A stretch of DNA of 64,000 nt from Bilabrum cf. latius (GCA_965178125.1 OZ237742.1:496001-560000); one strand, 5' to 3'; positions 1 to 64,000 are shown, counted from the first letter of the stretch. The notes: generated from the letters alone by a model not told the origin. Program-made: numbers and translations.

Positions 1-909
1 GGTGGGGAGGCGGGGGCTGCTGCTGCTGAGGAGGAGGAGGAGGAGGTGGATGATTTTCTCCTCGGGGGCGGGGACGACGACGGTGATGGGGGTGATGGAG
101 AGGAGGGAAAGTAGGGCGACGGATTTTTGCTCGCAGGGGAGGAAGGCGATGAAGAAGAGGGGCAGGGTGGGGAAGAAGATGGGTCGACCGGTGGCGGGTC
201 AGCGCATGGACCAGCAGCCAAGAAAAGGAGAACAGCGGCCTCCACTGTGCCTCTGTTCAAGAAAGAGGAGAGCCTGTTCGAGGAGCTGGGGGACGGCTCT
301 GACATGACCGAGGTGCCGGGCAGCTGGCGCGCTGCTTTCAGGGAAAAGGATCAGGGCAAGGCGCTCCGGAGGATGGCGTTCCAGGCCCAGCAGGGGGACA
401 CTGGCCTCACGGCAGAGTTCAGGGGCCGATACAGCGACACTGCCGCCAACAGGAAGGGCAAGTCGGGCGGGGCGTTGGATCGCGTGAAGAAGTAGCTGGC
501 CCGGGCGTACTTGCGGGAGATGAGGGGCCGAGGGCGGGGTAGAGGGGCTGGGCGCGGGGGCATGGGTGGGCGCGGGGGCATGGGTGGGCGCGGGGGCATG
601 GGTGGCCGCGGGGGCATGGGTGGCCGCGGGGGAGGGCGAGGGAGGGGGCGAGAGGGGGGGCGTGGTGGAGGTTTTGGTGCGGATTATGGGAGGGGGCGCG
701 GAGGTGGAAGTGGTCGAGGCGGCTACGGGGGTCGTGGGAGGGGCGGAGGGTTTGAGCGCGGTAGGGGGGGTGGGGGCCGGGGCGGGTGGGCCGACCGCGG
801 TGGTGGTCGAGGTCGAGGTGCATCGGGAGAAGGGACGGGCCGGGGAGATCACAGCCATGCGCCGAGGACAACCGCAGGTCCGGCAGGGCGCAAGCACATG
901 ACATTTTGA
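1..909 (+). CDS. 3' part of an acidic, RGG/GAR-repeat protein (probably RNA-binding/nucleolar); 5' end outside window
   Basis: Frame +1 is open from base 1 to TGA 907-909 if TAG 112-114 and 493-495 are sense. ORFs 127..495 and 511..909 share the frame. Glu/Asp-rich tract followed by GGMGGRG/RGG repeats. Confidence 0.7.
553..632 (+). repeat. 18-bp coding tandem repeat (ggcatgggtgg(g/c)cgcggg, ~4 copies) encoding GMGGRG
   Basis: Visible directly within the RGG tail. Confidence 0.85.
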
Positions 910-1178
910 TCGCAAATCTTTCAGCTCTGAAGGATTCTAACGCGTGGGGAGGGAAGCCGCACCACTGATCGAACCGCACAGAAGGTTCGTTTCTTTCCAC
1001 CAAACCTTCCGTGCAGAAGAAACAGAACTGAATTGCCTCAAGATAGCTGGTATCGCCGATTTCCTGGGACTAGAGCCAGCACAAGCTTGTACTAGACTTT
1101 AATTTTCTATAGCAGCCACTTTCCGCTGCAGTGACACGTGCGTGGCAGCTACCTGCGGCAGTCGCACGTTGGTGAAAG

Positions 1179-4100
1179 ATGAGTCGTCCAAGACGCACAT
1201 CGAAGCGTTCATCCGCTAAAAACGCTCTGGTAGGTTTGCCAGGCAGTAGAACCACAAAACCAGCTGGCGGTTCAGGGCGCCGACCTCCTTTCCTGGTGAA
1301 GCTCGTGCAGATGCTCGAAACCCCATCCCTATCTGATCTAATAGCATGGACACCGGATGGTCTCGGCATTCTAATCCAGAACCCAGATAAATTCGCGAGT
1401 GATGTGCTACCGCGCTTTTTCCGGCATAGCTCCCAAACATCATTCTTGCGATCGATGAACTTTTACGGGTTTCGCACGATCAAGCAGCTGAAGGGGCAGT
1501 GGCGAGTGTTCGGTAATCCCAGCTTCCGACGAGGCAACACGGAGCAGCTATTCCAGGAAAGACGAAACGTTCGCAACCTCCCCGGATCCTCCGGGATGGC
1601 CGCCACATCGCCGTTTGCAGGCGGCTCGCCGGGCCACCCTCACCCGGTCCCACCATCCGTGGGTGCGGCAGCTGCATACCCTTTCCAGCAGCAGCAGGCC
1701 CCGCAGGCGAACACATCAGCACCTCCTGCGCGTGCATTCCCAGGCGCATCGGCGTGGTCAGTCGGTGCGGGCGCTCCCCAGCCGTCCTATCCGTCGCATG
1801 CACGTGCAGGACCCGCCGGAGAGGACTCGCAAGGCTCAGCCATGACAGGCTCCGGGCAAGGGAGCGCCCCCAGGGCAGGAGCTAGCATGGGCATGCTGGA
1901 CGACTCCCTTGTCGGTTTCCCCGCGGATGGCAGCTCCGGTGCCGCTGCTGGTGCGAGACACCGTGGCGGGTCTGGAGCTCACGATCTTGACCTGGGTGCG
2001 CTGCAGGGCAGTGCAAGCATCGGCAGCCTGGGCATGGGAGGCTTTATTGGTTCCGGGTCCCTGAATGCCAGTGGCAATTCTCTGAGCGGGTTCAATTCGC
2101 AGTGGTCCATGGGCTTCGACTCGAGGCCAGCGGGAGAGGGTGCTGGGGGCGCTGGCGTGGATACCGGGGGAATGCACGATGTTGAAAGGAACAGGAACAG
2201 GGGCGGGCAGGAGGAAGAGGAGGCCGAGGCCGAGGCTGAGGCTGAGGAGAGAGAAGCGGCTGCGAGCGTGCTGACGGGCCTGAGCCATTCGTAGCACGGC
2301 AGACCTGACACTGGGCCCATCGCTGCAGAGGGGTAGGGCAGACTGACGGGGCTGGCGCTGTCAGCGTCACTGTCTCCCGAAGATCCCAAGGGCATCCGCA
2401 GGCGAAGAAGTTCTGGGGCGATTTCTGCGGCGGCGAGTGACTCTGCTTCCCGTGGGATTCCCCGCGCTGGCGTGGTGGGGCTGGTGGGCGGGGCATCGTC
2501 CGACAGTGCGTCGGCGTCGTTCCACCGAGGGGGCGCGGTGGCTGCTGCGGCCGAGGTTGACAGCGAGGTGGTGGGCGGGGGGCTCACTCCTGCGATCTCG
2601 CCCACCACCCCAAGGGGAATGCCCACACCCGTCCCCTCTACCGGCGGGTTGCACGTCGCAGAACTGTATGCTCCTCCCGTCAGAGCTGCGGCAGTCACCG
2701 CATCGCAGGTGCCCATGAGCAACGACGCAGGCCAGTCTGAACGTAATGGTACTGACGATGGTGCGTCGGGGCATCCACGACCAGCAGGCAGGGGTTTACT
2801 GTTTCCAGCGGAAGCAATCGCCGGCCCGGGCCCCGCTTCGATCTGCCAACGGCCTCCGCTGCTGCACCATTCCGCCTCTGGGTTCGAGCCCGCGAACATC
2901 GGCAAGCTCGTTGACACGTTGCAGCAAAAGGAGGACTGGGACAGCCTCGACTAGCTCTAGCAGCTGATGGAGGCCAGATCGATCATGCTGGAAGCGAGGT
3001 TGCGGCAGGCCGAGAGCCACAACCTGCGAGTTAGCAACATTCACGCTGCGCTGCGTTCGGCGGCTCGCACCGCGAACCAGTGCCTGGTAAAGCAAGCAGA
3101 CGAAGCTGACGAACTGCTCGACATCTATGATCGTCTCGAAGGGTTCGGCATGGGCCACAACCGCGGGGAGCTATCGGACCTCATTCAGCAAATGAAGGCG
3201 CACGCGGAGCCGTTGCGGGGGCGGCGCGTGCTGCTGGGCGCACGCGGTGCCAAGGGGTACACCGCGAGCGGCGGGCTCGGTACGATGTCCTTGGCAGAGG
3301 CTGCGCGAGTTGGAGGCCCTCCGCTCCTCACGCTGCACCCTTCGGTGATGAAGCGAATGCAGGCCACGGGTAGCAAGGCAGTTCCCCTGGAGCCCTTGCA
3401 TTCCTTCGCGCTGGTGCCACGTGACCTCGTGGACCAGGTGCGGCAGGGAGCAGCGCTGTAGCAGCAGGCGATGGATGCCGGGATGCACGGCGGGCAGGAA
3501 TAGAATGGAACCGGCAGTTCAGAGGACGAAAACGCGCTTGCTGCAGAGCCTATGCCCGCTGGGATCCATCGCCCGCAAGCACGGAGGAGATCTCTGTCTG
3601 AAGGCGACGACAGCAGGCACGCAGCATCAGCGAGTGTTGGTGCAGCCGGAGCCATAGGGCGATCCACTGGTCTTCTTGGCCCGCGTTTGCCTTCCTCTGG
3701 AGGCAATCTTCGCTCTTCTTCCAGCTCTGTGCCTCGAGAAACGCTGCAGATCGAAATAGGAAATAACCAGACAGCCAAGATTGTCGTAACGCCTGCAGCA
3801 CTGCCCATGGCGGCGCCCGGGAGCGACCAAGCAGGTGATACCACCAGCCCAAGCCAGGGAATGGTACAGGCAGCATTTGATCGGTTCAATCTGCCAGCAG
3901 TGGCACTAGCTGCAGGGCCTGGGTCTTCAGGCCGCGTCCGGGGTGGCACACCCGTGCGTGGACCTACCGAGCTGCAGAGCGCTGGCCTGATGCAATCCAC
4001 CGCGGCCGGTGCAGTGGACCGCAATCAGCGTCCCTCTTCTTCCTCGCCTGGCGGTGGCAGGCTCTCTGCAGGCCGTCCAGGCAGCCGGGGCGGTGTGTCT

Positions 4101-5450
4101 GCCTTCCGTCCGGCGATCGGATCGGGGTTGGTGCGATAGGCCAGGGGCACTGGGTCGTTCGGTTCCGGCCTAGTTGCTGCGGGGAGTCGAGAGGCCGGTG
4201 CCGGGGCTGGGGCTGGAACTGCCAGTCGGTTGGGTGGCAAGATGCCTCGCAGCCGATCCGATCCGGACCTTCCCTCTGCCGCGGCCATTGCCGCGGGCAG
4301 TTCTGCTAGCCGTTTCGATGCCTCTCTCGCTGGGTTCCGATCCAGGGATGGGCTGGATCGTAGCGATGCTGCGCCTGCGAAACGCCGGCGGATCGACAGC
4401 TCTGCCACAGGCATCGGCGACGGTCTCGCGGTGGGAGCGCACATGCTCGGCGACTCGCTGCACGGCGGTGGTCTCACCGGGCATTCGTGGTTCAACGAGC
4501 ATCCAAGTGCATCGCGGGATGGTAATCGCGCAGGCACAGGCACGCAGGCAGATACCAGCGGTTTTGGTGGATCGCTTGGTGCGCTTGGCGGTGGTCTCGA
4601 CATGTCCATCCAGATGAAAGACGGTTCTGCGCTGGCAGAAATTGTGCTTCGGAGCAATGGTGCGAGCAGTCGCAGCCATGTCCAGGCCGATCCAATGGAC
4701 AGCAGGCCCGGACACCATGCACACGGCATGCAAGAATCCCAGGGTGTTCCCACCCCAGACCAGCACGCACAGCCGCAGCAGCGCTCCTTGCGACTTGGCC
4801 TGCCTGCCTACCACCACCAGGACCGGGCAGGGTCGCATGCCCTCGGGGCTGCTGGCAAGCAGCAGGCATCGCAGCAGGGCAGGAATGCATTGGGTGGTCC
4901 GGAAGACTCGCGGTCTCTCGGTCTGCGGGATGGGCTGGTGAGCAGCCCGAGTGCAGAGATGCCCGAGTCCAGCAACGTCGGGCCGGAGCAAGGGCGTGGG
5001 CAGGGACAGAGCTCGAGCAGCAGCAATTGGCACGGTGTATCCAGTAGACAAGGCTCGTCTTCCTAGGGCCATGGTGGTGGTAGTGGTGGTGGTGCGGGAA
5101 CTCCAGTGACTCGCCCTGTGCCCTCGCGGACGTCTGGTGGCAAGCTGCGGCCCTCGCACCACGCTACCAGTGGCAGTGGCAGTGGCAGTGGCAGTGGCAG
5201 TGGCAGTGGCAGTGGCCGTGGCCCGGGCGCGCGTGGAGCATCTGTCGGTGGGGCAGAGCCAGAGCCTAGCCCCTGGATGTTCGCCAGGCACAACGCATCG
5301 AAGAAACGGTCAGATGAGCGGGTGGCGGCGAAGGCAGCCGGCGTGGCTGCGTCAGGTGCGCCTGGCGGCCATGGCACCAGCCGCTGGGCAGAGGAGGGCG
5401 ACCATAGGCATGGGGACGAGGACGACTACGAAGATGAGGATGACGGGGAC

Positions 5451-5482
<32 letters not shown>

Positions 5483-5732
5483 GGAAGAAAACGAACAAGA
5501 TGAGGACGATGAAGACGAGGACGACGATGAAGATGACGACGATGAAGATGAAGATGAGGATGAAGACGGTGTCGAAGACGACGGGGCGATCAGCGGGGAG
5601 GGCACGTTAGGAAGCCTGCAGGACGACGCCACAATGAAACCGAAGCGTAGGAGTCAGAAGAAGAGACCAGCACAAGATCCAGCTGCAAATTTGTAGCAGG
5701 AACTCGACGGAATCTTGGCTTTGGAGTCTTGA
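1179..5732 (+). CDS. HSF-type DNA-binding-domain transcription factor, ~1517 aa when TAG is read as Gln
   Basis: N-terminal HSF DBD motif PFLVKLVQML..LIAWTPDG..F...VLPRFFRHS..SFLRSMNFYGF. ORFs at 1179, 2472, 2967, 3552, 4230 and 5106 are all in one frame, separated only by TAG; the first TGA is 5730-5732. Confidence 0.85.
5168..5216 (+). repeat. (GGCAGT)n coding microsatellite (Gly-Ser run) in the HSF gene; an Asp/Glu triplet tract follows at ~5413-5582
   Basis: Visible directly. Confidence 0.85.
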
Positions 5733-5935: not shown

Positions 5936-8563
5936 ATGGCGGCAACTAGAAGAAAATTCGTCATAAAGCGGCACACACCGACGAAAGTTTTTACGGTCGA
6001 AAAGGCTCGTGAAACGTGGCAGAAGCTGAAGTCAGCGATCGAGTAGATACAGGGGTAGAATGCTAGCAAGCTTAGTTTCGAGGAGCTCTACAGGTGAGGC
6101 ATGTGCATGCATCGGATGGTTGAAGCGTGCTCGTTCTCGCCAGCCTTGACTATTCGACCGCTTGCCTGGTCTGAAACCATCAACGGCCTTGCAGGTATTC
6201 ATACAATCTTGTTCTTTACAAGCATGGCCACATGCTGTACGATGGGGTGACCATGACGGTACGAAGCTTCCTGCAACAAGTAGCCGAATCCGTGGCGACC
6301 GCTAGCGATAACATGCTGCTGGAGACATTGCAAGATAAGTGGTAGATGCATCAGCTGACAATGAAGATGATTCGTGATATTCTGATGTACATGGTGAGCG
6401 AATGCTGCGTGTGGTCAGCGACCTAATGTGGTTCCGAGCCTCACCTCTGCGTGCTTCATCCCTCTCCATGGCCGGCACTTGCAGGACCGGACATATGTGC
6501 AACAATCCAAATGCCTTTCTGTGTATGAGATGGGGCTACGGGAGTTTCGAAACGTCGTCCTGAGACACGTTCGTGTCGGGGCCCGCGCACGGAACCTGGC
6601 GCTGCAGCAGATCAGGGAGCAGCGGCTCGGCGAGCAGGTTGACACGTCGCTGCTCCGGGGACACTTGCGAATGCTCGTGGAACTCGGGATCGGTAGCCTC
6701 GGGGTCTACGAGAGCGAGTTTGAATCGCAGTTCCTGCGGGACACCCGGGCGTTCTACCGGGAGGAGGCGCAGGACCTCCTCACGGCGAGCACGTGCCCTG
6801 GCTACCTCGCCAGAGCCGAGCAAAGAGTCGTGGAGGAGCGGGAGCGCGTGGGCGAGTACCTGGACATATCCACCGGGACGAAGCTCCGCACCGTGGTGGA
6901 GCAGGAACTGGTAGAGACCCACGCTGCCAGCCTGCTTGAGATGGACACCGGTATCATCCGCATGTTGGACGAGCACCAGATGGAGTACCTGCACCGCCTA
7001 TTCTAGCTGTTTAGCATGGTGAAGAGAACTTAGAAATGGGAGCAGCGCGCGCCAGTCGCAGGCGATGCCAAGGCCTCTGCGGCTGGATCGGTGTCACCGG
7101 CTGCAGCTGCTGCGGCTGGTGGTGCTGCGAGCGGTGCAGGTGCCTCCACTGGTGCTTCTGCGTCAGCTCCGGGCGTGACTCGGGTGCTCACCCCGATAGG
7201 TATCGTCCGAGCCATGATGCAGCAGCACTTGGAGGCGGTGGGCACTCAGCTCCTGGCCGACTCGACCGCCACCAAGGATCCGGTCGCCTTCGTGCGCAAG
7301 CTGCTCGAGCTCAGAGACCACTACGAAAAGGTAGTAAGAGAGGCTTTCCGAGGGAACAGGGAGATGGTCCGCGCCATGAAGGAGAGCTTCGAGAAGTTCC
7401 TCAATGTTGACCACAGGTGCGCCCAGTTCCTGTCGCTGTACGTGGATTCCGAGCTACGGACTGGCTTCAGGGGCCGCACGACGGACGATATCGACCACGA
7501 TCTCAACTGCGTGATCCTCCTGTTTCGGTATCTCCGCGACAAGGACGTCTTCGAGACGTTCTACAAGCAGCACCTGCAGAGGCGTCTGCTGGGTGGCCGG
7601 TCAGCCTCGGACGAGGCGGAGCGCATGATGATTGCTAAGCTCAAGAGCGAGTGCGGGTACCAGTTCACCAGCAACATCGAGGGCATGTTCACGGACCTCA
7701 CCAACAGCCGGGCACTCATGGCCGCGTATACGAAAGCGCTCCGCGAGCGGAGGCGCAAGCTGACCGCGGAGGCGAGCGAACCCAGCGGCGTGGTCCTGAC
7801 GGATGCCATCAACGGCGTCGAGCTTCACGCGACTGTGCTCACGACCGTGCACTGGCCCAACAGCCACGAGCCACCGTGCACCTTGCCCAAGGAAGTGCAG
7901 CCCACCGCGCACCATTTCAAGGACTGGTACCTGCAGTCGCACTCTGGCAGGCTGTTGCGGTGGCACACGGCGCAGGGAACCGCAGAGATCGGGCTCAAGT
8001 ACGCCAACCGGCGGTACGAGATCGTCGCGTCAACGTACCAGATGGCCATGCTATGCCAGTACAACGGAATTGAGACGCCGTCCCTCACCTACAGGCAGAT
8101 CGCGGACGCGACAACCGTCCCCGAGGCGGAGTGCAAGCGCCATCTGCTCTCGCTGACCACCCCGCTTGCGAGGATTCTGATCAAGGAGCGCAAGGGCAAG
8201 GACATCAAGGACGATGACGTGTTTAGGCTGAACCTCGCATTCAAGAGCCCGAAGCTGAGGAACAGAATCAAGCTGATCACGATGAAGAGCGCCACAGGGG
8301 GCACCTCTGCGGCTGCCAGCACCGAGCTGCCCGCACATGTTCTCGCCCAGCGCAACAACATGATCGACGCTGCCGTGGTGCGGATCATGAAGAGCCGAAA
8401 GTCTTTGCAGCACATGGCGCTCATTGCCGAAACTACGAGATAGCTCAGCCAGCGGTTCCAGCCTGACCCTCAGCTGGTGAGGAAGAGGATCGAGAACCTG
8501 ATCGACAGGGACTACCTGGAGCGAGACAATGACGACAGGAGGGTCTACCACTACATCGCGTGA
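5936..8563 (+). CDS. CUL3: Cullin-3; exons 5936-6093, 6195-6393, 6485-8563
   Basis: NASKLSFEELYR|YSYNLVLYKHG, MIRDILMYM|DRTYV, DKDVFETFYKQHLQRRLL, KLKSECGYQFTSNIEGMF, neddylation-site region IDAAVVRIMKSRK and RIENLIDRDYLER. GT-AG introns restore the frame. Internal TAGs (e.g. 7004-7006, 8441-8443); ends TGA. Confidence 0.93.
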
Positions 8564-8963: not shown

Positions 8964-11079
8964 TCACTCCTTGCCCTTGCCGCCCACGTAGTGCTCCCTG
9001 AGCATCCCCTCGTATTTCTCTACGATGTCTCTGCTCTTGGAGTCACCGGCCAAGTTGACCAGGTCCCACGCGTCAAAATCCACGCCAGTTGCCTGGTCGT
9101 CCCTGTGGTCGTAGAGCTCGCGGGCATACGGCTCCGCGTTCCAGTCGACGGTCTGCGTTGTGCCATTCCATGCCCTCCATGAGACGTACCTGTACGACAT
9201 GTCTCTGATCGCGTAGCCCATGTAAGAGAGCTTGCTATCCTTGACCCTATTGCAGCTATCGTCGCCCGTGGCAATGTCGCCGCAGCGTGGGTAGATCGAC
9301 AGGGCGTACTCGTTGGGACCCTTCTCGTTCTCAGGGTCACGCAGCATGGACGCGAGCGACTTGCCATTGCCGACGGTCCCTGCGGGTGTGGGCAGCCCCA
9401 TGACGTCAGCCAGGGTGGGATACATGTCCACCAGCTCGGCAATCCCGCCAGCTCGCTTGCCTCGGTAGCCCGCAGGAGTGGTGTCGGGCGCCCTGATGAT
9501 GAGCGGCACTCGGGTGTGCCCCTCCATGTTGCCTTTTTTCTCCCACTGGCCATTTTCCTAAAGGAAGTAGCCGTGGTCAGCACTGCGAACTCGGTGCAGG
9601 AAGTGTGAGATGGGAAGGGGGCTTGGCCTGCTCTAATTGCAAGCGGTCGCACAAACGAAGCGGGAGCTGCGGCAAGGAACGGCTCAGGCCCAAACACGCG
9701 CAGCTGCGCTCAGAACCAATCTAGAAGCAACCACTGCACTGGCTATCACACTCACTGAAACACCGTCACTGTGTCGTCCCACACGCCCAGCTCCTTGGCC
9801 GTGTCCATGATGGTGCCAAAAAGGTAGTCGGCCATGGACACGCACGCGTAGTAGGCTCTCCGGTTGAGTGCCTCGATGTCCGAGGGGACGGGCGAGGTTC
9901 TGTTCCAAGCAAACGACTTGCCGTCAGCGTCCTTCACGGCGAAATTGTGGATCCAGGCGACGTCTGGGGCCGTCGGGGGAAAGGTCGGGTGCTTGGCGCC
10001 AGCAACGGAGGAAGGGTCGTACATGCCGTAGAACTCGGGGAGGCAGGCCCAGGGCGCGTGGGGCGAGCGCAGCCCTGCCATGATGAAAAAAGGCTCCGGG
10101 TCGCTCCCCTGCAGCTCTTGTTCCCTCTGCTTGGACACGGCAAACTTGAGGTATTCGATCGTCGCGTTCGCGACACCGATGTCGTAAATCAGGGACTGGT
10201 CCGAGGTGGAGCACCAGCCGCCGCCCTCCCCGGCATGAGAGGACCGGGGGCACCTATTTCCTCCCTGGGGGTAGTATGGCTTCTGCTGGCTCCAGCTGTA
10301 GGGCTCATCGTTGTTCGGGGGCTCCCCCGGGCTGCGCGAAGTGAGCAACTGGCGCTGAGCGGCCGCCGGTGGTTAGGTGCAAGGGTGCGCACGAGGAGCT
10401 CAGGCGTGTTACACTGTGGATTAGTGCCTCACTGGTACGTTTTGCCTAGACCGAGGGTGAGGAAGCCGTTCTCCTTGAAGTACTGCGGCATGCTGACGGT
10501 AGTGTTGCCCCCGGGTGCGTCCCGGAAATTCACCAGGAAGTCATAGACAGATATGTTTGTCGGTCGTCGACCGGACATGAAGCTATTTCTGCGGTATTGG
10601 TTCTATCTGGCGGGTGTTGGGGGAATCACAAGGCGGCCATGAGAATAGTGCATAGGCCCCAGTCGCGATGGCTCACCTGCTTGGGCTGCACACAGCAAAC
10701 TACGAATAGGCACGGTCAAATACAACTCCATCCTATGCTAGGCTATCCAAGTGCGGCGTCTGCATGAACTTGTTGCCGTACACGCCGAGCTGGGGCCTCA
10801 TATCGTCGGCCAGGAGATCTGCGCTGCTTGACACTACTAAGGGAGCATGCACGCGATCGCATAAGGAACAAATGAAATCACCATGCACTCATTGATCACA
10901 AATGGAACTTACAAAGCACCTGCGAAAGTATCGTAGCGAAGGACGCAAGAGACCTGTTTCATGTCAAATAACAGGCTTTCTATGGCAGCGACAGAGTCGC
11001 CCAAATCGCTCACGTTCTTTGCCGCATCTCCAACTTGAAAATATGCGAACGCTCCAGCAGCAAAAATGAAACTGCGCAT
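8964..11079 (-). CDS. Secreted iduronate-2-sulfatase-like (formylglycine) sulfatase, ~5 introns
   Basis: Signal-peptide-like MRSFIFAAGAFAYF; KN|VLY|LLADDMRPQLG; AYS(TAG)FAVCSPSR|NSFMSGRRP (CxPSR motif); GKTYHPG; PHAPW; ADHG; TRVPLII; ELYDH; ends TGA 8964-8966. Introns about 10920-11013, 10819-10912, 10590-10676, 10333-10432, 9583-9755. Confidence 0.88.
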
Positions 11080-11577: not shown

Positions 11578-12248
11578 AGTCTGGTAGGTCCCGGGCCCTC
11601 GTTCCAGATGTTTCTTCGTGATAGCGTGCGCTTTTGAGTTGAGTCCACAAAATATCAGATCCCCCCCATTGGGAGGCGAGGACTCCGAGGAGGCCAAGTT
11701 AAAAAAGTTAACGCCCCACGCGATAATTAGCAACGGCGTGGATCCACCGCTAGGCTGTGGTGGCCCTACTGCCGGCCGTGTGGAGGGACTCGGTGCGGCA
11801 CTACTGCACCACTGCCAGTTCAACCACCCGATGGTGCCTCAACACGCTATACGCCTTTTCCCACGACGCACACAAGTCAAGCTTAGCAATGGTCAGGCGG
11901 CGGTGGCCAGGCAGGCAGGGACCCATAGGTTGAAGAGAGAGCGCTACCTTGCTCCAACTGGCAGTGGCACCCCACCCCACCCCAGTGCTGGACATCTCAT
12001 GCCGGGGTGCCACTGGCAGTGGGTGGGGGGGCCAGAGAGCTCACCCCGAATATGCCCGCCTCAGGTATGCCCGGTGAGCTTGCGCTGCTCAAACCAGCCA
12101 GTTCATTGACGGCCTCCACGTCCAACTGGCAACACAACAACGATCGTGACAACGGCTTGCCGGTCTCGTGAACCATTCGGAATCACAAATGTTCTTCGAG
12201 AACAACTGAGACCACAGTTTCGGCGGTGAAGCTGGAGACATCTTGACA

Positions 12249-12890
12249 ATGGCACAAGTTTGGGATGAAATCGAGATTGAAGATATGGATTTTAAGGAGA
12301 AGGAGGCCAAATTTTACTACCAGTGCCCCTGTGGAGACCTTTTCTAGATCACTTTGGTGAGATGCCGCCATCAGACCACTTCCCTGTCCACGTTGCCGGA
12401 CATTTCACAGCGTGTGCACCAGCGATGCCTTCAAATCTGTTCTAATTATATTGCAGGACGAACTTATGGACGGAGAGGATATTGCATCTTGTCCGAGCTG
12501 CTCGCTGAAGATTCGCGTGGTTTTTGATGATGTAAGGAAGCTCGTTTGCCGCCTCAACACTGTCCAAGCCAACGCGACACGGTTTTTGTGATATAGACTA
12601 TTTTGATTTACGGCTCGCAGGATGACCTGGAGGACTTTGCGGCAATGGCAGAGGAGGCGCAAATCGAATCTGAGGATGCAGCAGGTGCTGCCGCGGCCGC
12701 GGCAGAGAGCAGTTCTGGGTCTGTCGAGCCGCAGGCGACTACCCGAAGCGCAACTGCTGATCGACTAGCAGCAACGGGAGAAAAGAAATCCGCTGCAGCA
12801 GGAGCTGCGCCGGCGGCCGATTGCAGCTAGCAGGCAGCAATGGCGAAAGCACCCGCCGCAAGTGCAGACGCTCCTGCAAAAGCATCTTAA
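12249..12890 (+). CDS. DPH3: Diphthamide biosynthesis protein 3 (CSL zinc finger) with Ala-rich C-terminal extension; exons 12249-12356, 12457-12531, 12621-12890
   Basis: WDEIEIEDM..FYYQCPCGDLF(TAG)ITL|DELMDGEDIASCPSCSLKIRVVFD matches the DPH3/KTI11 pattern; ends TAA 12888-12890. Absent from the ORF track. Confidence 0.9.
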
Positions 12891-13876: not shown

Positions 13877-14037
13877 GGTTCTTTGCGTGCCAGTTAATTG
13901 CGCACGTCGTTCCGACCAAAAAAATATCATTTTACTTGTTACATGCACCTTACATTGTGCCCGACAGGACTTGCCAAAATACAAAGCGATTATGTTGTCT
14001 TTAAACAGTCGTACACGCAAGCAACGCCGGGAAGCCA

Positions 14038-15370: not shown

Positions 15371-15418
<48 letters not shown>

Positions 15419-21234: not shown

Positions 21235-21387
21235 GGCTGCGACAGTGCTGCTTAGATACCCATTCGAAGCCCCGTGCCAAGAAGCATCGCATTGCCCAGT
21301 TGATCCGGTCGCAGCTTGCGGTCGCACAGGCAGGCACCACTTTTATGCTGATCGCCAGTCGCAACGCATCCTCCCGCGTTGCATCCT

Positions 21388-53400: not shown

Positions 53401-56400
53401 CTGCCGCTGATGAATCGAAGGCGTTCACGAGCGGGCCCAGCAGACGAACCAGCTTGTCGTCTTCCGTCGGTTGGTCTCCTTTTGACGCGTCACCCTGCTT
53501 CTGCGTGTCACTGCGCTCCATCTCGGCCAGGAACTTAGACACGTCAGGCAGCTTGGGTTGCACCATTCTTGCTTCGAGCTCTACTTGGAGCTGCCCCTGC
53601 AGCGATACCAACAGGTCCGACAAGGCACTCCTTAGGCTCTTGCCTCTAGAGTCCAAGCATTCCATCAAACCAAGGGCCGCCTCAACGCTTGAGGCGCTAG
53701 TTGAGGCCGCATACTCCCGCTCGATGGATCCGAGGTGCTTCAGCAGCGCGACGAACGGTGCAGTGCCGACCCGGCGGAGGTCCTCGGTGTCCATCTAGTC
53801 GATGGCCGCAGATGCAGCGCTGGTGCTCGCTGCCTCATCAGTTGCCGCAACTTGCTCTCGCAGCATCTTGAGCTCTTCCTCCACCTCGCTAAACAGGCTC
53901 GTTGGGAAAGCGATGGGGTCAGTCAACGCAGTCAACGCCTTGCGCTGCCCCACCGCTGCAGATTCGTCACCGCCATCAGGCAAGGGCACGTCAGCGCCGG
54001 CTCCGCTGGCGGCAGGCACCACGTCAATATCTTCGCTCTGCTTCGACTCGGCAGCACCGCCTGCATCCACGTCTTCCAGCATGCCAAGACCGGCTTGCAG
54101 CTCAGACGCACCGGCCAGGCCCAGATGATCGTCCAGCGCATCCGCTGGCAGGGCATCTCGAGAGATATCCGGAAACATGCCAGCAAAATCTGCCTGTGGG
54201 GCGAGGTACCCGGCAAACATCGGGACGAGATTCTTGCTCGAGCTCACGCTCTGCAGCAGTGCTGTCAGGAGGGACACCTCCTGTGCTGCAGGATCAAACT
54301 AGTGCTGCTCGCACTGCTGTAGCACTGCAGCAGTGAGCTCGTGCACTTTCCGCAGTTGCGTCGCAGGCGACGGCAGCAGCAGCGGCATCAGCACCCGCGA
54401 GCACAGCCCGGCTTCCTCCGCTACGCGACCACTTCCAATGGACATTGCTCTGCGCAGAGACGTATCGAGAGTCCACAAAAGCATCGCTACCTAGTCCGGT
54501 GGCGCGAGGCACCATGGCGGCAGCTTTGCAGGCTCGTCATCCTCAGCTGCGGCTCCTGTCTTCTTGGAAGAAGCCTCCTTCTCGAGATTAACCGCGAACT
54601 GATCGTCATCTCTGTCAAGTGCATCTGAGGCAGGTGCTGACAAGGGCAACAACATGCGGCACAGACGCAAAGCAGAGAGCAGGAGGCCTTCCTCCGCCTT
54701 GAAGTCGGCAGGAGCAACTCCACCGCGCTGCAAGCGTTCAACACCACCTTGTACAACTGCCAGAAGGTCTTGAGCACCGCTTAAATCGATGCCAGGCTTC
54801 ACCAGGTCCAGGACTCTCGATCGAGCGGCACCAATGGTCGAGAAGTCAGCCATAGATTTGCCGTCTGCGGACAGCGCTGACTCCGACTCAAAGGAAACTC
54901 CAACAGGGCCATTGCCTCCGTACTGCATCGACAAGTACGCTTGTTCAAGATCGGCCATTCGAACAAAATAAAAGGCCGGAAGTCGCCCGCTTGATGTAGA
55001 GGTTCCGTTGCTGCGTGGCTCGCCCGTCTGGCCAAGCGTGAAGTCCACCCCCGCGACGGAGAAATCCTTTCCATTAGAACCCGGGGCAACGCTTCCAGTC
55101 CACCCGTTTGATCCACTGGTGTACTTCGAAGCGAAGTGGTAGTCCTTCCCGCCCACGAGAGGTACTGGGCGCGGGAATTCCACGCGGTTTTCCTGTCGCG
55201 AGCCCTGGTTGTCCAGGCTGACCGGGTGGAACGCGAGCCTATCTTTCTCGCCGCCCGACTGCGCCGAAGGGCCCTCGTGGATCATGATATGGCCATTCAG
55301 CTTGCCACCGCTGCGACAGGAATACAGCGCAAACCCAATAATCGCCACGCTCTCCGATGCCTTTATCTTGTGGCCATCCCAGCCACCCGTCATGCCCCAC
55401 CCGCTGCCACCGCGGGAAGGGTCTGGGAACCGTGCCATCTTGTGCTCTTCAACGCGACTCAGCAGCCGCTACAGTGTAGCATCGTCCAATTCACTCAAGT
55501 CAAAGGCGCCAGACTGTCCTGCACTACCAGTCCCACCGCCCTGTGATGAAGAGCCTGCGCTACTAGGGATCTCGAAGCCTGGATCCAGCTTGAAACGCGC
55601 GGAATCTGAATTTTGTCCATCGCCAAGCCCTCCGTCCAGAAGTGCTGCCTCAACATCGGGCGAAAACACCTTCAAGCGCTTGTTCTCAATCTCCCGCATG
55701 ACTTCTTTTTCGATGATTTCGGTGGCAGCAAGCGTGCAAAGGGACGCCAGACTCTTGGCATCAACCCACCCGTGCTGCTCCCGTTCGTCTGCCAGCCCCC
55801 CTCCGAACCCGCTTGTTGATGCCATCATAGCCGTCTGCAGCGGCGAGCTGCCTGCAACGCTCGCCACAGGCTCAGCGGCATGCCTCAGAATGATGTTCAG
55901 CCCTTCTTGCAGTGCGTCTTCTTGCATCTATCCCGCGGCAGTCCAGCGCCCCGCTGCTGCCGTCTCCTGCTGGGACTCAGCTTGCCTGCATTCCGTTGCC
56001 ACGGATGGCAGCAGATGCATTGCAAGGCCAGCGACCGGATGATCGCCCAGCTTGCCGATGCCAACCACGTACGTCGCTTGGTCTACGGGGTCGGAAGCAA
56101 CTGCCACGTCCGCACTAGATAGGCAAAGTTCGGCACTTGCAGCCTTGCAGACCTCCACCATTTCCTTTGGCATTGAATCAAGCAACTTTGCCACCCTCAT
56201 GGCAGCAGGGCTGAGGGCACCAGCGACATTAAAATCAACCTGTGCCTGGAGCTCAGTTGGTGGCGCGCCCAGCTCCTTGGAAAGAAGCGCAGCAGACCGC
56301 ATTCGTGTGCGGGCCGGTACGATTGGCAGCACCTTCTTAATAGCACGAGTAGCCTCGTCATCTGGCGAACTGCCCGGCGATAGATCCGAGATGGTCAGCA

Positions 56401-59400
56401 TCGCTGAGTTGGCGGACTTGATTGCATCGGCGCTGATCTCCTCGGCACCCTTGGCCTTACAGTAGACTGTACCGACGCGCAAAGGTTCGCCCCTAATCAC
56501 GAGCCGACCACGCCGCAACGCTGCGACTGGGGGCATGAGGGGAGCGGTAAAGCACCCGAGCATGCTGCCGCGGCTTCCAAAGTCCACCAAGGAAAGCACG
56601 GAAACTTTATTGCACTGCTTGTCAAGCTGCTTCAGTGCTTTCTCTGCATCGTACGAGGCCCTTCCTTCAGGGGTGGCGAGGGACTTCAGCCAACCCAAGG
56701 TTGGCAGCGGCACAAAGTTTGGGCATGTGACCAGGTATGGGCCTTGCTTCAGGGATGCATCTGGTGACTCGCGCCTCTTCTTGTCTGCTTCGGTCAGGTT
56801 GATTGCGTCCTGGCCCCAAATCGCAACTCGCCCGCGGGCAGAGCGGACTGCCGCTCGACCGGACTGTGACACGTGAACGTCGACGATGGGTCCTATGCCG
56901 GGCGGCATTGGCACTTCGTGCGGGACACCATTGGCACTGGGTCCACTGAGCACCTCGGATGACCGTGAGCCCGTGATCTTTGCCACGATCGGAACGGTGA
57001 CTTCAGAGTCATTCATCGGTGACACAAGGCTGTGCTTGGCATCTCCGAACGCAAACACTCGCCCATCCTGACACCCTGCGATCGTGACGGTGTCACCGCA
57101 CCCAACGGACGTGACGCGGAATCCTTTGTCCCACAAGCACCGGTTCACAGTCACATCTGCAACGTCCTCGTTGCACTTTGATGAAGGCACACCGCAGCGA
57201 CCTCCTTCGTTGAAGCCGCACGTTATCAGGTGACCCGCGTTGGTGACAAAGGCTGTGTGATTCGCACCGAGAGCAATCTCGACGACTCGGCACTTCCCAT
57301 CGAAGCCATGCGCGCACATCGATTTATCCAACGAGGCGGCATCTATTTCAGCTTGAAGCTCGGCCATAAGCTTGTCTAGCGCAGTGAACCGGACAAAGTT
57401 CGACTTTTTTTGCACTTCAACTTTGCCCTGCTATTCCTCTGCGAAGCCAAGCTCGTTGTAGCCGCCGTCCATGCCAGCACAAAACACCCCGCCGTCCTCA
57501 AGTAAGACAGCTGTCTTTCCTGTCAGCACTGCAGCATCGATGACGGCACCGCCCTTGTCACTGTCAGGTGCTCCGGCTTCGCGCAAAGAAGCCCGCAGCT
57601 GCGTGGGCTTTGTCCCTCCACCGGCTTGCTTCTTCACGCCGAGTGCGTTTGCGTGCTGACTGCCGAGACCGTAAGCCTCTCCGTTGCTTGCGATTACGAT
57701 CGAGTGCGAGGCACCTCTCTTTCCAACAATCTTCACTGGCTTCACCGAAGATTTTCTCGCCACCACAGCAGGGAACAGAAGTGACCTGGGTACCATCAGC
57801 CACGGCAACTGCTTCTTGCCGTAGTCCGTAAGCTCTCCTTCCGCGTCATACATTTTGCTGTGCAGCCCGCGCATCTGCTCCGCGGAAGACTCCATGGCAT
57901 CAGTGTTGGCGCCAGCAAGACTGACATTGCCCGCGAAGAGCTTCTTGCCCGACGTCCAGACATGGCCGTCGTTTGTAATGCCCAAAATACCGCCATGAGT
58001 GTTGGTTGCTTGGACCAAAATAGGCGGCTCATTCGTGCCTAGCACCCGTCCAACTTCCTCCTCGCTGAAACCACCTCTTGTTTCAATCAGTGCCGTCAGG
58101 TCCTTGTTTGCACCCTTCCCCTTTCCACTCTTAGAAAAGTGCGACTGAATCGCAGTGCACGTCGCCACGCTCGGTACCACGCCAAGCGTAATGTGGCACT
58201 GCTATTTGGAAATATGAAACGGCCACGACAGGGTCGAGTGGATAGCGTAGCTTGCTTCCATTGAAGCAGCTGATGGCTCAGATACGCCCGGTTGGTCGCT
58301 CGGTACAAGCGTGTTGTCGAGTGGAAGACCTGCGACAGCAACCTGTCTGCAGCGGGCTGCATCGCCAGTGAACTCCACGCTAAACTGCCTGGCGACAGTC
58401 GAGTACTGAGTCGCGTCAATAAGCTGCTACACGTGCTATGGGACTGGGGTCCGGTACCCAACTGCAGCTGTTGCCGCCTTGGCAGCAGCAGCTGGGGTGC
58501 GGGCATCCTCCCGTGCTGCGCCACCAGCCGCAGCTCCACCGGCAGCTGCTCCTGCAGCTGTTGCGGTTGCATCGTCAACAGTCTTCTCCATGCCTTCGCA
58601 TCCAACGTACGACTTATGGGGCATATGCAGACTATCGATGCACACGATCTGGCTGCCAGATCCGTCCACATCATTAGGGTCCGACGTGATTGACCTGGCC
58701 ACCCACACCTCGCCAGTGTCCTCACCGGATGCACTGCGTGGTGCGGACGGCATTGCGAGACGGCCGTCGATCTTAAAGCTGCCCGATGACTCGTTGACAG
58801 CGAGCACAGTTGCACTGGCCTCCAGTTTAGCTGCAATTCCGGCTTTGTTCAGGAACTGCTCTTCGTCGCTCTCAGCCAGCGACAGCATCAGTGCGACGGC
58901 GACGGCACGCTCTCGATTCCCACCAGTTGGTACTGCGGACGATCGGGCGGCTGGGGAGGCCCCATCGCTGCTTCCGGCACCCGATGAGGCCTGCGCCTCT
59001 CTTTTGTTAAAAATTGCTAGAGAAAGCATCCAGTCTGATCGCTCAAGAGCCTCTTTAACCGACAAGGAGGCACCGGGCTCCTCGTCGGACTTCTCGGTGG
59101 GTGCAGTCCCGGCAGCAGCCAGACCGAGGTCAAGAATGGACAGGTCAGAGCGAGCCACAACCCGTCCCAGAGACAGCTGACCCCGTGAGGAGCTGCGCCC
59201 CTAGATGGCGAGAATTCGCACCGCTGGCGTCTCCACGGATTGGTCCGTTTCTTTCGACTTGGCCTGGAGGGCCGCAGCTACGTACACCACGCCATCGTAG
59301 GCAGCCACGCTGAGCGCACGGCCTATGGCAGGGACGAACGCATCGCCATCTTGGTAAAGCTGCCCGCATAGGTCCAATCGGTCCGCAAGTGAGGCAAGGG

Positions 59401-60526
59401 AGGGCAGGGGGGCTCCCGACTGGGCTTTCTGCGGGTTTGCTGCGGCGACGAGGCTCGCAGCCGACGCAGGAATAGGCACCTTGAGCCTCTTCTTGGAAGC
59501 AGTCCCACCGCTTGCGGGGCTGGCGTCCTCGAGCTGGTCTTGCGCCGCGTTGAGCTTGGACACACCGGCTAGCAGTCCTGCCACGGTTCCCTTGGCCAGT
59601 CCCATGCCGAGGAGGGCGCCCAGGGCCCTGGCTTTGCCGTCACCCAGCGGTCCCGCGGTGTGGTCTCCGTCAACGCTGGTGAATTTCCGAAGGAGAGCTT
59701 CGACCTGCTCCACAATTTCGGGTGCCTCCGCCCTCATGCCGCCCATTGGCATGTCCCCGAGCGCCGCTGCGAGTACGCGGAGGGGGCCCAGGCACAGCTC
59801 CGGGTGCGTCTCGGCAGCTGCTCGGATGAAGGAGAAGGAGGAGGCCACTGAGAGTGCCATGGTGCGTGGGAGCTATCCCGAGCTCGATGAAAACGAGGCG
59901 TCGTCCTCCTTGCTCTCCTTGCCTTCCTCCAGGGCGCGGCGTGCGGCGTCCTGCACGGCCTTGAGAGAGACCTGCTTGCCCATCGCCTTCATCTGCGATT
60001 CCGCGATTTTGTACGCCTTTGCAAGTCGCAGGTCGCGCTTGAGACGCTCGATCTCTCGATCGATAGTCGCCGAGTTGCTGGACGCAGTAGCCAGCTCGCG
60101 CTCCATTGCGAGGGCGGCAAGTTGAACTCTGCAGAAGTGCACGAATGTGGGTGCATACTCAACGGGGAGAGCTGCGACTAGCCTGCTGCTGCCACTTTCT
60201 TTGATGGATGCCGAGCCTGAACTGACACCATCAGCTCCAAGCAATGCGTCACGAGCAGCTTTGAGCCCCTTCTTAATAGCGAAGCCTTCCGAGTTGGCGG
60301 ATTCCACTGGCAGAACCACCGAGTCGAGGAGCTCAGATGCAGCCTCAATTGACTCTTCTGATACGACCTAACTGGCCAATCCCCGCATTTTCTCGACCAC
60401 TTGAACGAGCTTTTGGTTGGCTTGGGCCTTCTGAAGTTGCTTGGAGACCGCCTCCTCATCCTGGAGCCTTAATAGGAATTTTGCTTCGGCCTTCTTCGAA
60501 TCAAAGTCAGCTTCCCTAGAGCTCAT
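41429..60526 (-). CDS. MYCBP2: Giant PHR-family (MYCBP2/Highwire/RPM-1-like) RING-Cys-relay E3 ubiquitin ligase, ~6365 aa
   Basis: More than 20 ORFs share one frame from ATG 60524-60526 to TGA 41429-41431. RCC1-like repeats (~56800-58100), two PHR domains ending NGTS...G(R/Q)(L/I)P, ESPSPYK..LEFDPRCAT module, DOC-like (DTFWEP), B-box CDQHDDGET, RING CTACYTEAL..CGHNFH, tandem-cysteine domain CPKHGTDF..CCSPAVWFCWGTTHFC. Not every inter-ORF gap was read codon by codon. Confidence 0.9.
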
Positions 60527-60847
60527 CTTGATGTCTGCGATGCAGATTTATGGTGAACAACGTACCAAAAGAATTAGGCAGTGAAGAGCTGGGGCAAGGA
60601 ATCTAGAAGTGCGATCCTTGTTCTCGCGAGCCGGGAATGCAGTCATTAAACAGGAACAAACGTATCAGTCCCAGCTCCAAACCGTACATTTATTTTCACT
60701 TCGTAACAGTCAATCGCGTACACCGATACTTACGCGTTTAACCCAGCGAAACGCACTTCAATAGTGGTGTAGAATGTACAATTCACGATTTAATCTATAA
60801 CATATCGTTACAATGTTGTGGCAGCTTGGACTCGGAATTTGGAGGTT

Positions 60848-63800
60848 TCAGATTTCTTCTTCTTCCGCGCCCGCAGCCGCACCAGACAATCGAGGACCCA
60901 TTCGCATGGTACCGCGACGATCTGGGCCGCTGCCAAACATGGCGCCCCAACCGGACAGTACAGTCTACGAACCAGGGGCAGACGCAAGCCCTTTTTCATC
61001 ATTCCCGTCATCATCGTCATCATCATCCCAGGCCTACCCCCTATCCATAGCTCGCAGCCCAGCACCGGCGGCGGCAGCTGCAGCAGCTGCCGCCGCCGCA
61101 CTGGGACCAGCTGTCGTCTTCACGAAGTCAGCGAGGGCAAGCAACCCGCCTGTCCTCGACGACGTCCCTCCGCCAAGCCCACCACTACCACCCTTGGCCC
61201 CCGATGGGCTGCCCACATCATACACACCCACCTCCGATCCATCATCTCCTGAGGCAGGGTGACCTCCTCGCTTCCGTTTCTTCCCAGCGATCGCCAGCCC
61301 GTGCCCGTGCCCTTGCCCTCGCCGTTGTTGTCCGGTGCTCGATCGAGCGGTGGTGGTGGTGCCCCGTCGCGACCTCGCTTTGCCCATACGAGATGATGAC
61401 GATGACGAGCGAGACTTCGAAGTGCTGCCACCCTCTCCGCTGAGTGCATCATCCTCCTCCTTCTCCTCCTCATCGTCGTCGTCTTTCTGGTCCCCGCGGT
61501 CTCTGCTAGATTCCGCCGCCATGGCCGCACGCATGGCATCCTCCAGCCGCTCCTCCGCCTCAACGAGCTCTTCAGCGTGGCTTGCTGCCGCCTTGCGACC
61601 AGCGATCTGGGCTTTTTGAGCAAGTGCCTGCAGCTCGGCCACGGCCTCGCCGCCGTCCTCCCCCTCTATTGCCCCCTCGCCGCCACCACTGATCGCCTCC
61701 ATCATGCCCTCGGCAGTTGCGAGGCTGTGAAGCGAGAACAGCCTAGATGGCTCGCACCTCAAACCGCTCCGGTACGTGATGAACGGCATGTACCACGGTT
61801 TTTGCCTGAGGAAGAGGGGGTGGGCGGCCACGACCCTGGTCGTTGTCGTGCCGCTGGCGCCTCGGCTGGTCTGTCCGTCTCCAGACGAGTCCTCGCCAGT
61901 GTGCTCCACCAACACGTCAAACTGCACCTGGGAAAGCCTCTGCAAGAACGCGTTCTGTCGCAATCCCTTCTGTCCGAGATCCAGGAAGTGCGAGGAAAAG
62001 AAAATGCCAGGGCATGTGACAACGAATCCGCCGCTTTGGAGGAAATAGGCAATCCCAAGCGACTCCCCGAGGGATACCAAGTCGAACGCGATTCGCACCG
62101 GCTTGCACGCTTCCGGAAACATGCGGTTGTAGATCCTGCTGGCAGCGACGACACACCCGACAGCCACCGGGCGGCTCTCGTTGAACATTCGAGACGTGCC
62201 GGGGGCGTCATCGACGATTGCCCCCGACGTGAAGGCAACCAAGTAGTCGCGTGGCAACGGATCTGTCAGCTCCAGCCCTTCTGCAGCTACCGGGCTAGTC
62301 TGCTCGGAGCCGTTCCCAGCACCACCACGGCCAGCTGTGCTCGAATCTGGCTCGGCACTGCCTGCGCTCACAGCAGCTGCAGAAGACGAGGATGAGGAAG
62401 TGGAAGTCACCGCGAGAGAGCGGCCATGGCCATGGCCTGCTGCTGGCGCACTCTTCGCCACCAGGGGCTGCAAGGCGTAAGGGAGGATGGAGAGGGCCCC
62501 GATCTCGATGTTGCCACCCACAGGCTCCTCCGCACTGTCTCCTGCCCCGCGAGTTCGGGTCCGGGAGTCTGTGCTCCCGATACTGTCCTCGCTGAGACCC
62601 AGGCCGGCGTGGTCGATTGCTAGGTGCTCGATGCCAGCCGTCAGATCTTGATCGGCGGAAACCAGGCCGCTGCCTCTAGACTGAGACGATCTCTCGCTGG
62701 AAGGCTCAAGGGACAGACTGCCCATCGACTTCATTTTCCGCAGCACGCCGAGACGAACACGAACCACCACACGACTGCCGTCCCCGAGCCCGGTCGGCTG
62801 GCCGTTCTCTCCGATCGAGCTTCTGGCCTGCAGAGCGCCAATGGCAGCACTCGCGGCTTTGCGCCTCGCATGACTGCTGCCACTCCCAACAGCAGCGTAG
62901 GCCTGAAAGTCCTCACCTTCATCTTTGCGCCTGTAGGCAAGCACTTTGGCCTCCCAGGTGCTTGGAGGTGTGACCATCAAGATCTGCCTCCAAAGCGTTG
63001 GCCTGGGCGCTATCAGCCGTGCAATTTTCTTTTCAGACAGAGAGTGCCATGGTCCTTCTCTCGTGTCGCTTCCAGATGGGGCTGCGCCGGTTTCAGTCTG
63101 CTGCTCGTCCCCCCGGTCCTCTGCAGCATCGACGATAAGGCTACCAAGCATTCGGTCCATCGCGCCGCTGCCGGGCACGCAGTGCTGAAAGCCAGCGACG
63201 TGATTCCTCATTCTTGCACCGAGTGACTAGGCGTCAGGTGATTGCCACGCATTGCGATTCTGTGAAAGCTAAGCGCGGTTCCACCGCTCCGCCAGTGCGT
63301 GCTCTTCTGTTCCCCGGTGCAGGCCAAAGGCAGCCCGCAGGTCCTCAAGCAGCGATCCGATGCGGTGCAGCTGCAGCTGCTAGAAGGGCCACCAGCCGTC
63401 CTTTTCCCGCTGGAAAGAATCGATCGAGTCGTCCTGGCGTCTTGTCTCCAGGAGGCCGTGCAGCGTCGATGTCTTGACATGGTGCCCCCGACGAGCCCGC
63501 CCGGCACCACGCCGAACTGACCGCCTACCGTCACCGCCTTCGTCAACTGAGTCACTGTCGGAGTCACTGTGCTCGCTTGTATCGTCCTATTCATCATCAT
63601 CTTCATCCTCGTCCTCATCCTCGTCCTCGTCCTCATCAACCCCCCGCATGGCAGGCTGGCCACGAGATCCCCGCCCACTCCCCCGCCCTCGCCCTCGCTC
63701 TCTCTCTCGTCTGGTGGACCCAGTCGTCTCCTAGCCCCGGCGAGAGCCGCGGTGCCTTCGACGGTTGGACGCCGTGCGAGGTTTTGGGTGGGGCGAGCTC

Positions 63801-64000
63801 GATTCCGAATCGGTCGACGCGTCCTCACCACCATGCGATGCAGCTGCCGTCCCTGTGTGTCGCCTGCTGTTGGTCGCATGCAGTGGCATCCCCATCAGAT
63901 GCAGAGGGTCATTCTTGTCCCCCAAAGCGCCCACAATGCGGCGATCCGCATCCATGGCAGCATCCGCGGGTAGGCCGAGCGTGGTGCGCATCGATGCTGC
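60848..64000 (-). CDS. Hypothetical protein, 3' part (5' end beyond window)
   Basis: ORFs 63731..63991 and 61034..63211 are in one frame; the intervening and downstream sequence contains only TAG until TGA 60848-60850. Confidence 0.7.

Follow-up and report, generated by a model that had tools for sequence, protein, structure and literature searches.

In-frame UAG codons probably read as glutamine in the nuclear genes of a GC-rich genome with stramenopile-like proteins

This study describes the genes on a stretch of 64,000 nucleotides of DNA from Bilabrum cf. latius (GCA_965178125.1, OZ237742.1:496001-560000; the whole stretch is called the window in the following and positions are counted from its first letter), in which nearly all genes are interrupted by in-frame TAG triplets, and it reports which residue these triplets are likely to encode. 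Our reading, to which we assign a probability of roughly 0.9, is that UAG is translated as glutamine in the nuclear genes of this organism, with UGA, the dominant terminator, and UAA remaining stop codons. The window has a GC content of 0.56-0.67 per 4-kb bin and contains no N letters. Judging by their matches to Pfam families and to solved structures, the TAG-bearing frames are real eukaryotic genes.

A first-pass annotation, made from the sequence alone, had pointed to one frame of 19 kb and two frames of about 6 kb that become apparent if TAG is read through, and all three were recovered on the minus strand. The largest (41429-60547) is an apparently intron-less gene of 6372 amino acids with 37 TAG codons, encoding an E3 ligase of the MYCBP2/PHR (Highwire) type with an RCC1-like domain, two PHR stretches (Pfam PHR, E 1.1e-29), a SPRY domain and a RING plus tandem-cysteine domain. 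Its C-terminal 250 amino acids align end to end with human MYCBP2 (PDB 5o6c, E 2.6e-70) up to the last residue, and TGA follows directly after this conserved C-terminus. A search for full-length relatives (3504-11151 amino acids) of the protein, performed with query residues 1373-6372, scored none of 874 candidates. The two other frames, at 34162-40779 (2205 amino acids, 27 TAG) and 24353-30349 (1998 amino acids, 12 TAG), belong to no Pfam family; the N-terminal part of the latter has an orthologue on a metagenome contig, L001, that is described below. The frame of 2205 amino acids contains a 54-nt tandem repeat (39007-40187; 21.9 copies with 93% matches) encoding an 18-amino-acid unit of approximately ATGSQSSGAGPMQGVWSK; this array is free of TAG and the remainder of the frame carries all 27. 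These largest genes are uninterrupted by introns, and GT..AG introns of the spliceosomal type occur in the carrier (18476-18900), sulfatase and DPH3 genes of the window.

Several of the smaller genes belong to well-defined families. A cullin-3-like gene (6398-8563, plus strand), of which the C-terminal 721 amino acids lie in one frame, carries TAG at codons 203, 212 and 682 (8441-8443). It matches Pfam Cullin (E 3.5e-150) and Cullin_Nedd8, its alignment to human CUL3 chains (E 8e-111) reaches the last residue, and TGA stands directly after the conserved C-terminus; about 100 positions at the start of the Pfam model are not covered by the frame, and upstream exons are likely. The gene of a 6-phosphofructo-2-kinase/fructose-2,6-bisphosphatase (PFKFB) with a carbohydrate-binding module (CBM) occupies 30709-33300 (plus strand) with TAG at codons 35, 323, 627 and 646, and it matches Pfam 6PF2K (E 1.5e-71), His_Phos_1 and AMPK1_CBM as well as PFKFB3 in the PDB (E 1e-120). 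Among the named matches, this fusion of an AMPK-type carbohydrate-binding module with PFKFB is found in Cafeteria and many oomycetes. An aldo-keto reductase (AKR; 23115-24218, plus strand; Pfam Aldo_ket_red, E 9.1e-41; 24,078 relatives at E<=0.001) has three TAG at codons 57, 232 (23808) and 237. A sulfatase of several exons (8964-10888, minus strand), matching iduronate-2-sulfatase-type sulfatases in a search of solved structures, has a TAG (10700-10702) just before its CxPSR active-site motif and a second one 11 codons upstream, and a DPH3/Kti11-like exon (12210-12527, plus strand; PDB Kti11/DPH3, E 6.5e-08) has one at 12345-12347.

The mitochondrial carrier gene (17241-18900, minus strand; Pfam Mito_carr, E 7e-46, in four stretches) contains six TAG and at least one probable GT..AG intron following PLDTYK. 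In its part at 17683-17828, a 48-nt repeat in three copies encodes units of the type GGSTATGGQGHGAGRXG, where X stands for TAG here and in the following; every copy contains TAG, which means that in-frame duplication has affected sequence with a TAG in it. A gene of the endo/exonuclease/phosphatase family (nocturnin/CCR4-like; 21388-22902, minus strand; Pfam Exo_endo_phos, E 3e-11) has a single TAG at codon 461 before its PSDH motif and is the sole frame ending with TAA. An HSF-type DNA-binding protein of 1518 amino acids (1176-5732, plus strand; Pfam HSF_DNA-bind, E 1.5e-20) has nine TAG and ends with TGA, and a TALE (KN) homeobox protein of 794 amino acids (14038-16422, minus strand; Pfam Homeobox_KN, E 4e-05, slightly below the gathering score) has one (14821) within a Q-rich run. 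Two further frames on the minus strand belong to no Pfam family, one of 618 amino acids with four TAG (19180-21036) and one of 1050 amino acids with seven TAG that runs off the window (60848-64000). The first-pass annotation had described almost every gene as broken by TAG, which applies to nearly all of them but not to every one: the small frame at 13442-14047 (minus strand), which ends with TGA and whose translation resembles a clathrin-adaptor (AP) sigma subunit, is free of TAG.

With the standard code, frames between stops in the window reach 730 amino acids at most. Reading through TAG alone yields frames of 6372, 2205, 1998, 1518 and 1050 amino acids; in the corresponding controls, reading through TAA alone leaves the longest frame at 730 amino acids and reading through TGA alone gives 829 amino acids at most. 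The twelve long frames comprise 17,454 codons with 114 in-frame TAG (0.65% of codons), no internal TAA and no internal TGA, in a window that holds 768 TGA and 220 TAA trinucleotides in total, and this distribution of 114 TAG versus 0 TAA and 0 TGA is far beyond chance. Next to 548 CAG and 147 CAA, TAG makes up about 14% of the Gln-type codons in these frames. It is used like an ordinary glutamine codon, occurring in every long gene and also at conserved and catalytic positions. Were TAA read as glutamine as well, about 30 TAA would be predicted from the CAA:CAG ratio of 147:548. As none is observed, as TAA read-through lengthens no frame and as one frame ends with TAA, this triplet is not used as a sense codon. 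The same holds for UGA, because internal TGA is missing from the twelve frames and 13 of 14 frames end with TGA, the remaining one being that ending with TAA. Moreover, UAG has to be decoded efficiently as sense, since a single gene contains 37 TAG and even modest termination at each of them would abolish the product.

The individual TAG codons listed in the first-pass annotation are all present in the frame and context described. These include ETTR-X-LSQRF at 8441, CPCGDLF-X-I at 12345, AYS-X-FAVCSPSR at 10700 (minus strand), HPLL-X-Q at 23808, THL-X at 18474 and Y-X-PVD at 32587, and the TAGs within runs of Gln codons at 3459 (AAL-X-QQ), 14821 (HQQ-X-LQ) and 36025/36028 (PR-XX-Q). For the carrier motif, which had been given as PLDTYKTHL followed by TAG, the codon at 18474 holds but the motif is split at the DNA level: PLDTYK and THLX would join only after removal of a putative GT..AG intron. 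That essential parts of several proteins lie beyond TAG codons had been noted as well, and it holds. In the cullin this concerns the neddylation domain, in PFKFB the phosphatase domain and in the exo-endo-phosphatase-family protein the PSDH motif; in the MYCBP2-like protein, half of the RING (its second) and the tandem-cysteine domain in full are found past TAGs.

Sequencing runs allow the DNA letters themselves to be judged. A test stretch of the window is present in ten sequencing runs from five studies, and four of these runs (X2, X5, X6 and X8), from four studies, were compared over positions 41400-60600. One short alternative contig aside, their contigs show 0-1 differences from the window, and run X6 contains a single contig of 19,010 nt over the 19-kb gene with 0 differences. 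Since the 19-kb gene is letter-identical across runs, the TAGs are not assembly errors. That the TAGs would represent pseudogene lesions, sequencing errors or assembly errors can be given next to no probability: nothing was found in favour of such an origin, only one stop codon of the three occurs in frame, the genes are otherwise conserved and intact, contigs of four runs carry an identical sequence, and the contig L001 carries a TAG of its own at a conserved glutamine. The codon counts, the run contigs and the codon pairs of L001 thus contradict it.

The alternative contig covers 41538-41633 with 10 differences in 96 nt and occurs in runs X2, X5 and X6 alongside the window version. All 37 TAGs of the MYCBP2-like frame lie upstream of this stretch, which falls into the final 70 codons of the frame, so that it represents either an allele or another copy of the 3'-terminal coding part of this gene. 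In run X2, the depth falls from ~93 to 0.6-3.7 between 49733 and 52296, with X6 and X8 even across this stretch, and in one X2 contig position 49637 is connected to 54366, so that 4728 nt are missing and four other letters stand in between; this dip and joint could reflect a structural variant or an assembly artefact. The many joints around 45457-45491 are not introns; they fall into low-complexity acidic repeats that are common to other contigs. The window sequence is found, with 0-1 differences, in runs deposited under four different organism labels by four studies, so that either these labels all name one organism, or the organism often accompanies or contaminates other cultures.

The residue encoded by TAG can be addressed by comparison with a relative. 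A protein from the PFKFB homologue search, P0103, shows 85% protein identity to the window PFKFB, and its DNA is the metagenome contig L001 (7525 nt, GC 0.57). L001 shares only ~76% nucleotide identity with the window over the catalytic part of PFKFB and therefore comes from a different organism. At all four TAG codons of the window PFKFB (35, 323, 627 and 646) L001 carries CAG, and codon 817 is CAG in the window and TAG in L001, so that the orthologue pairs in this gene are TAG<->CAG in 5/5 cases with neither AAG nor GAG as a partner. The column of codon 817, the Q of 'SHQA', is glutamine in 112/119 homologues. If this TAG of L001 is read through, 46 more residues follow which are identical to the window C-terminus, and then TGA TGA. 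The L001 organism thus shares the TAG = Gln code.

A second approach made use of homologue columns. At cullin codon 682, glutamine is found in 78/101 homologues, and at PFKFB codon 646 in 80 of 119, with K in 26. Glutamine is the commonest residue at AKR codon 232 (Q 27 and Y 23 of 124), and at PFKFB codon 35 K (26) and Q (22) are found among 62 non-gap rows. A Codetta-type codon inference, which the first-pass annotation had proposed as a check on the genome, was performed here on eight TAG columns of the window: homologue profiles were built for three families without P0001, which is the window's own truncated copy, and without the close relative P0103, the queries were masked with X, and log emission probabilities were summed per codon. 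With unflattened profiles (--enone), the posterior for Q is 0.99996, and the log-likelihoods at TAG are -15.7 for Q, -26.0 for K, -27.8 for R and -28.5 for E, with Leu and Ser outside the best five. As a control, 57/60 sense codons were recovered with these profiles, the three misses having <=8 positions each. In a power check with 500 draws of eight positions per amino acid, true Q was called Q in 87% and other amino acids were called Q in <=0.2% of draws. The 5/5 TAG<->CAG pairs and the profile inference are two independent lines that support UAG as a sense codon for Gln with TAA and TGA as stops, equivalent to NCBI table 15, as had been proposed.

Alignments to solved structures complement these data. 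In the sulfatase, the X before CxPSR pairs with Q in both of the two chains shown (6hhm and 5fql), and the second X pairs with T and S. The DPH3 X pairs with the Q of yeast 'GDRFQI' in three alignments shown, all of yeast Kti11/DPH3. In CUL3 the X positions pair with K and Q and in PFKFB3 with Q and R. Weak hints come from the window itself: among the neighbours of TAG, Gln codons number 16/226, the highest share of the codon classes, with Q itself at 76/1388, and the carrier TAG at 18474 sits where the protein's own repeats 2 and 3 carry Q (KQRLQ and KTRLQ).

Several observations weigh against the assignment of UAG to glutamine or leave room for other readings, and they are considered here together with these readings. 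Individual columns favour other residues, namely E 90 and Q 22 of 119 at PFKFB codon 627, V 37, L 29 and R 24 of 124 at AKR codon 237, and D 41 and R 17 of 101 at cullin codon 203; in the single human chain available for comparison, X positions of the MYCBP2-like protein pair with L and E. With the default entropy weighting of HMMER, the same eight columns are split between Q 0.38, K 0.27 and E 0.25; this version recovered 53/61 sense codons and mis-called CAG (n=50) as E. In the poorly conserved gene at 24353-30349, all ten aligned TAG positions pair in L001 with codons other than CAG or CAA (AAA, CGA, GGT, CCG, ACG, AAC, GAG, GAC, GCT and CGC), which we take as ordinary divergence at variable sites, since all of them lie in a low-identity context or in a probable 5' leader. 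UAG might be a sense codon for a residue other than glutamine, the nearest being Lys, Glu or Arg, as the default-weighted profiles place K and E near Q and as E, D/R or K prevail in some TAG columns. We regard this as very improbable: the orthologue pairs of PFKFB include no AAG or GAG, the near-invariant Q column at codon 817 holds TAG in L001, and the unflattened profiles place Q ahead of K by 10 log units.

A further point against an unambiguous glutamine codon is that TAG was treated as sense when the frames were delimited, and termination at a TAG would be visible only in genes with a conserved C-terminus, of which the window provides three. It follows that a terminating TAG elsewhere would escape notice, and UAG might be ambiguous, encoding glutamine inside genes and acting as a terminator near the 3' ends of some mRNAs, similar to the situation in Condylostoma or karyorelicts; such ambiguous stop/sense codes are known in ciliates (according to the available parts of PMC4967479 and bioRxiv 10.1101/2022.04.12.488043). 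The HSF frame, in which the last TAG is located just 11 codons before TGA, would be compatible with this. In each of the three informative genes, TGA stands directly after the last conserved residue, as judged for the cullin and MYCBP2-like genes from human chains and for PFKFB from the two organisms, and dedicated stops are in use (13 frames with TGA, one with TAA), which makes an ambiguous UAG unlikely.

Another limit concerns the kind of the runs, RNA or DNA, which is not on record; as the compared gene is intron-less, the contigs confirm the DNA letters and not those of the mRNA. Under the standard code, the TAGs might be corrected in the RNA by U-to-C editing of UAG to CAG, or bypassed. 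TAG and CAG differ in exactly the single base that such editing would alter, and the data are at the DNA level or of unrecorded kind. Editing would have to act at 114 sites in 52 kb of coding sequence, on in-frame TAG only and without a TAA or TGA counterpart, and we know of no nuclear U-to-C editing system of such a kind. The contigs of X6 and X8, two runs that may consist of RNA reads, keep the genomic letters, which is a hint only, their kind being unproven. Taken together, correction or bypass in RNA is highly improbable. Finally, the components expected to bring about a decoding of UAG as glutamine were not met with at this locus: no tRNA gene was found in the window or in L001, an Rfam search gave no match in the window, and the eRF1 gene is not among the window's genes.

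By analogy to known cases, the change might have involved three components. A tRNA-Gln with the anticodon CUA, the only anticodon that decodes UAG but not UAA, could derive from a duplicated tRNA-Gln(CUG) in which one anticodon base was altered. The glutaminyl-tRNA synthetase, for which the anticodon is an identity element, may adapt to accept this tRNA, and eRF1 would have a weakened grip on UAG, with changes expected in motifs of its N-domain; the motifs of stop recognition are GTS, NIKS and YxCxxxF. A tRNA-Gln(CUA) combined with an altered eRF1 has been argued for Iotanema spirale in a paper that sets out such reasoning for the rhizarian exLh too (available part of PMC5304391), and we infer a tRNA/synthetase/eRF1 mechanism of this kind for the organism of the window.

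The organism is probably a stramenopile of unsettled position, judging from its proteins. The best named matches of the cullin are Bicosoecida sp. CB-2014 (42%), Chrysoparadoxa, diatoms and Pythium. For PFKFB, Cafeteria roenbergensis (62%) leads the named matches; next come oomycetes, whose proteins share the CBM+PFKFB architecture. In a quick tree of PFKFB, the window protein and P0103 (support 100) fall inside a clade of 28 rows (support 99) together with Cafeteria roenbergensis, oomycetes and environmental rows, apart from amoebozoan, fungal, animal and plant rows. In the cullin tree, the window protein is a long branch in a poorly resolved clade (support 95) that includes two apicomplexan-type rows. 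Ciliates are absent from the named cullin and PFKFB matches, and neither tree includes a ciliate row. An Rfam scan of the window found no rRNA gene.

The next relatives of the PFKFB protein, P0104 and P0108-P0110, share 64-69% identity and have open reading frames of 1,020-1,047 amino acids under the standard code, in collections whose gene calls for the window organism and L001 stop at TAG (P0001, P0103 and P0373). At a TAG frequency of 0.65%, the chance for an uninterrupted gene of 1,000 codons is ~e^-6.5. That these long frames are unbroken despite the expected TAG density suggests, without proving it, that the nearest PFKFB relatives use the standard code. A scan of 79 other metagenome loci for a gain in frame length upon TAG read-through flagged none; many of these are GC-rich, and any read-through lengthens frames there.

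Several nuclear and viral codes resemble the one found here. According to the available text of PMC11687900, UAG alone is reassigned to Gln in Iotanema spirale, Protocruzia tuzeti and two phyllopharyngean lineages, to Leu in an uncultured rhizarian and some phyllopharyngeans, and to Ser in Scotinosphaera. Iotanema spirale (Metamonada, Fornicata), in which UAG = Gln and a retained UAA stop were inferred from the transcriptome (available part of PMC5304391), agrees with the window in codon, residue and the lack of UAA reassignment. It belongs to an unrelated lineage, the window proteins probably grouping with stramenopiles, and it differs from the window, which is GC-rich (0.56-0.67) with TGA as near-exclusive stop (13/14) and provides genomic instead of transcriptomic evidence. 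The phyllopharyngean ciliates and Protocruzia tuzeti likewise assign UAG to Gln without UAA, with recent independent origins (PMC11687900, available text), but they belong to the ciliates, in which code changes are numerous, and no named cullin or PFKFB match is a ciliate. Codes with UAR = Gln (NCBI table 6 type), described for many ciliates, Hexamita, Streblomastix, some Ulvophyceae and Amoeboaphelidium (PMC11687900, same text), share the change from stop to Gln, presumably via a mutated tRNA-Gln; in contrast to the window, with 0 in-frame TAA in 17,454 codons where ~30 would be expected, they also read UAA as Gln. The rhizarian (UAG = Leu) and Scotinosphaera (UAG = Ser) resemble the window in the uncoupling of UAG from UAA (PMC11687900 and PMC5304391, as far as available) and differ in the residue, as Leu and Ser are outside the five best-scoring residues here and the PFKFB orthologue pairs are all CAG. 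The crAss-like and Lak phages, which use code 15 with TAG = Q (available part of PMC9523058), formally have the same table, but these are phage genomes in bacteria, while the window contains intron-bearing eukaryotic nuclear genes.

The window thus presents a known code variant, UAG = Gln, in a new lineage, and it is common to at least two divergent organisms. In the open-access literature searched, with subscription journals and supplements outside the search, no non-canonical nuclear code was reported for a stramenopile, and the term 'stramenopil' is absent from the available part of the PMC11687900 account of UAG-only cases. The suggestion of the first-pass annotation that this GC-rich genome could be an independent case is therefore plausible in view of the stramenopile-like proteins and of the cases named in that account, although a prior publication is possible. 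We judge it somewhat more probable than its opposite that the change is an independent, unreported origin of UAG -> Gln in a GC-rich, fast-evolving stramenopile clade of at least two members, and the first non-canonical nuclear code in Stramenopiles. If so, the nearest relatives would probably be without the change, which would make it datable and its intermediate stages findable.

Few eukaryotes depart from the standard nuclear code, and cases in which UAG parts from UAA are rarer still. A further independent case outside the ciliates, in a GC-rich genome with TGA as nearly the sole stop, bears on the question how code changes begin: TAG may first have become scarce among stop codons and then have been taken over by a mutated tRNA-Gln. 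With two divergent members, such a clade offers material for comparing the states of tRNA-Gln, glutaminyl-tRNA synthetase and eRF1 that preceded and followed the change. There are consequences for databases as well. Public open reading frames called under the standard code end exactly at in-frame TAGs, as seen for P0001 at codon 682 of the window cullin and for P0103 and the ENA-derived P0373 in the PFKFB of L001 (L001 2521-5274), and because public gene calls are cut at TAG the database proteomes of this lineage are fragmented. Phylogenomic and functional surveys under-count these organisms unless table 15 is applied. The finding is therefore of interest for the evolution of the genetic code and of practical weight for the annotation of these genomes.

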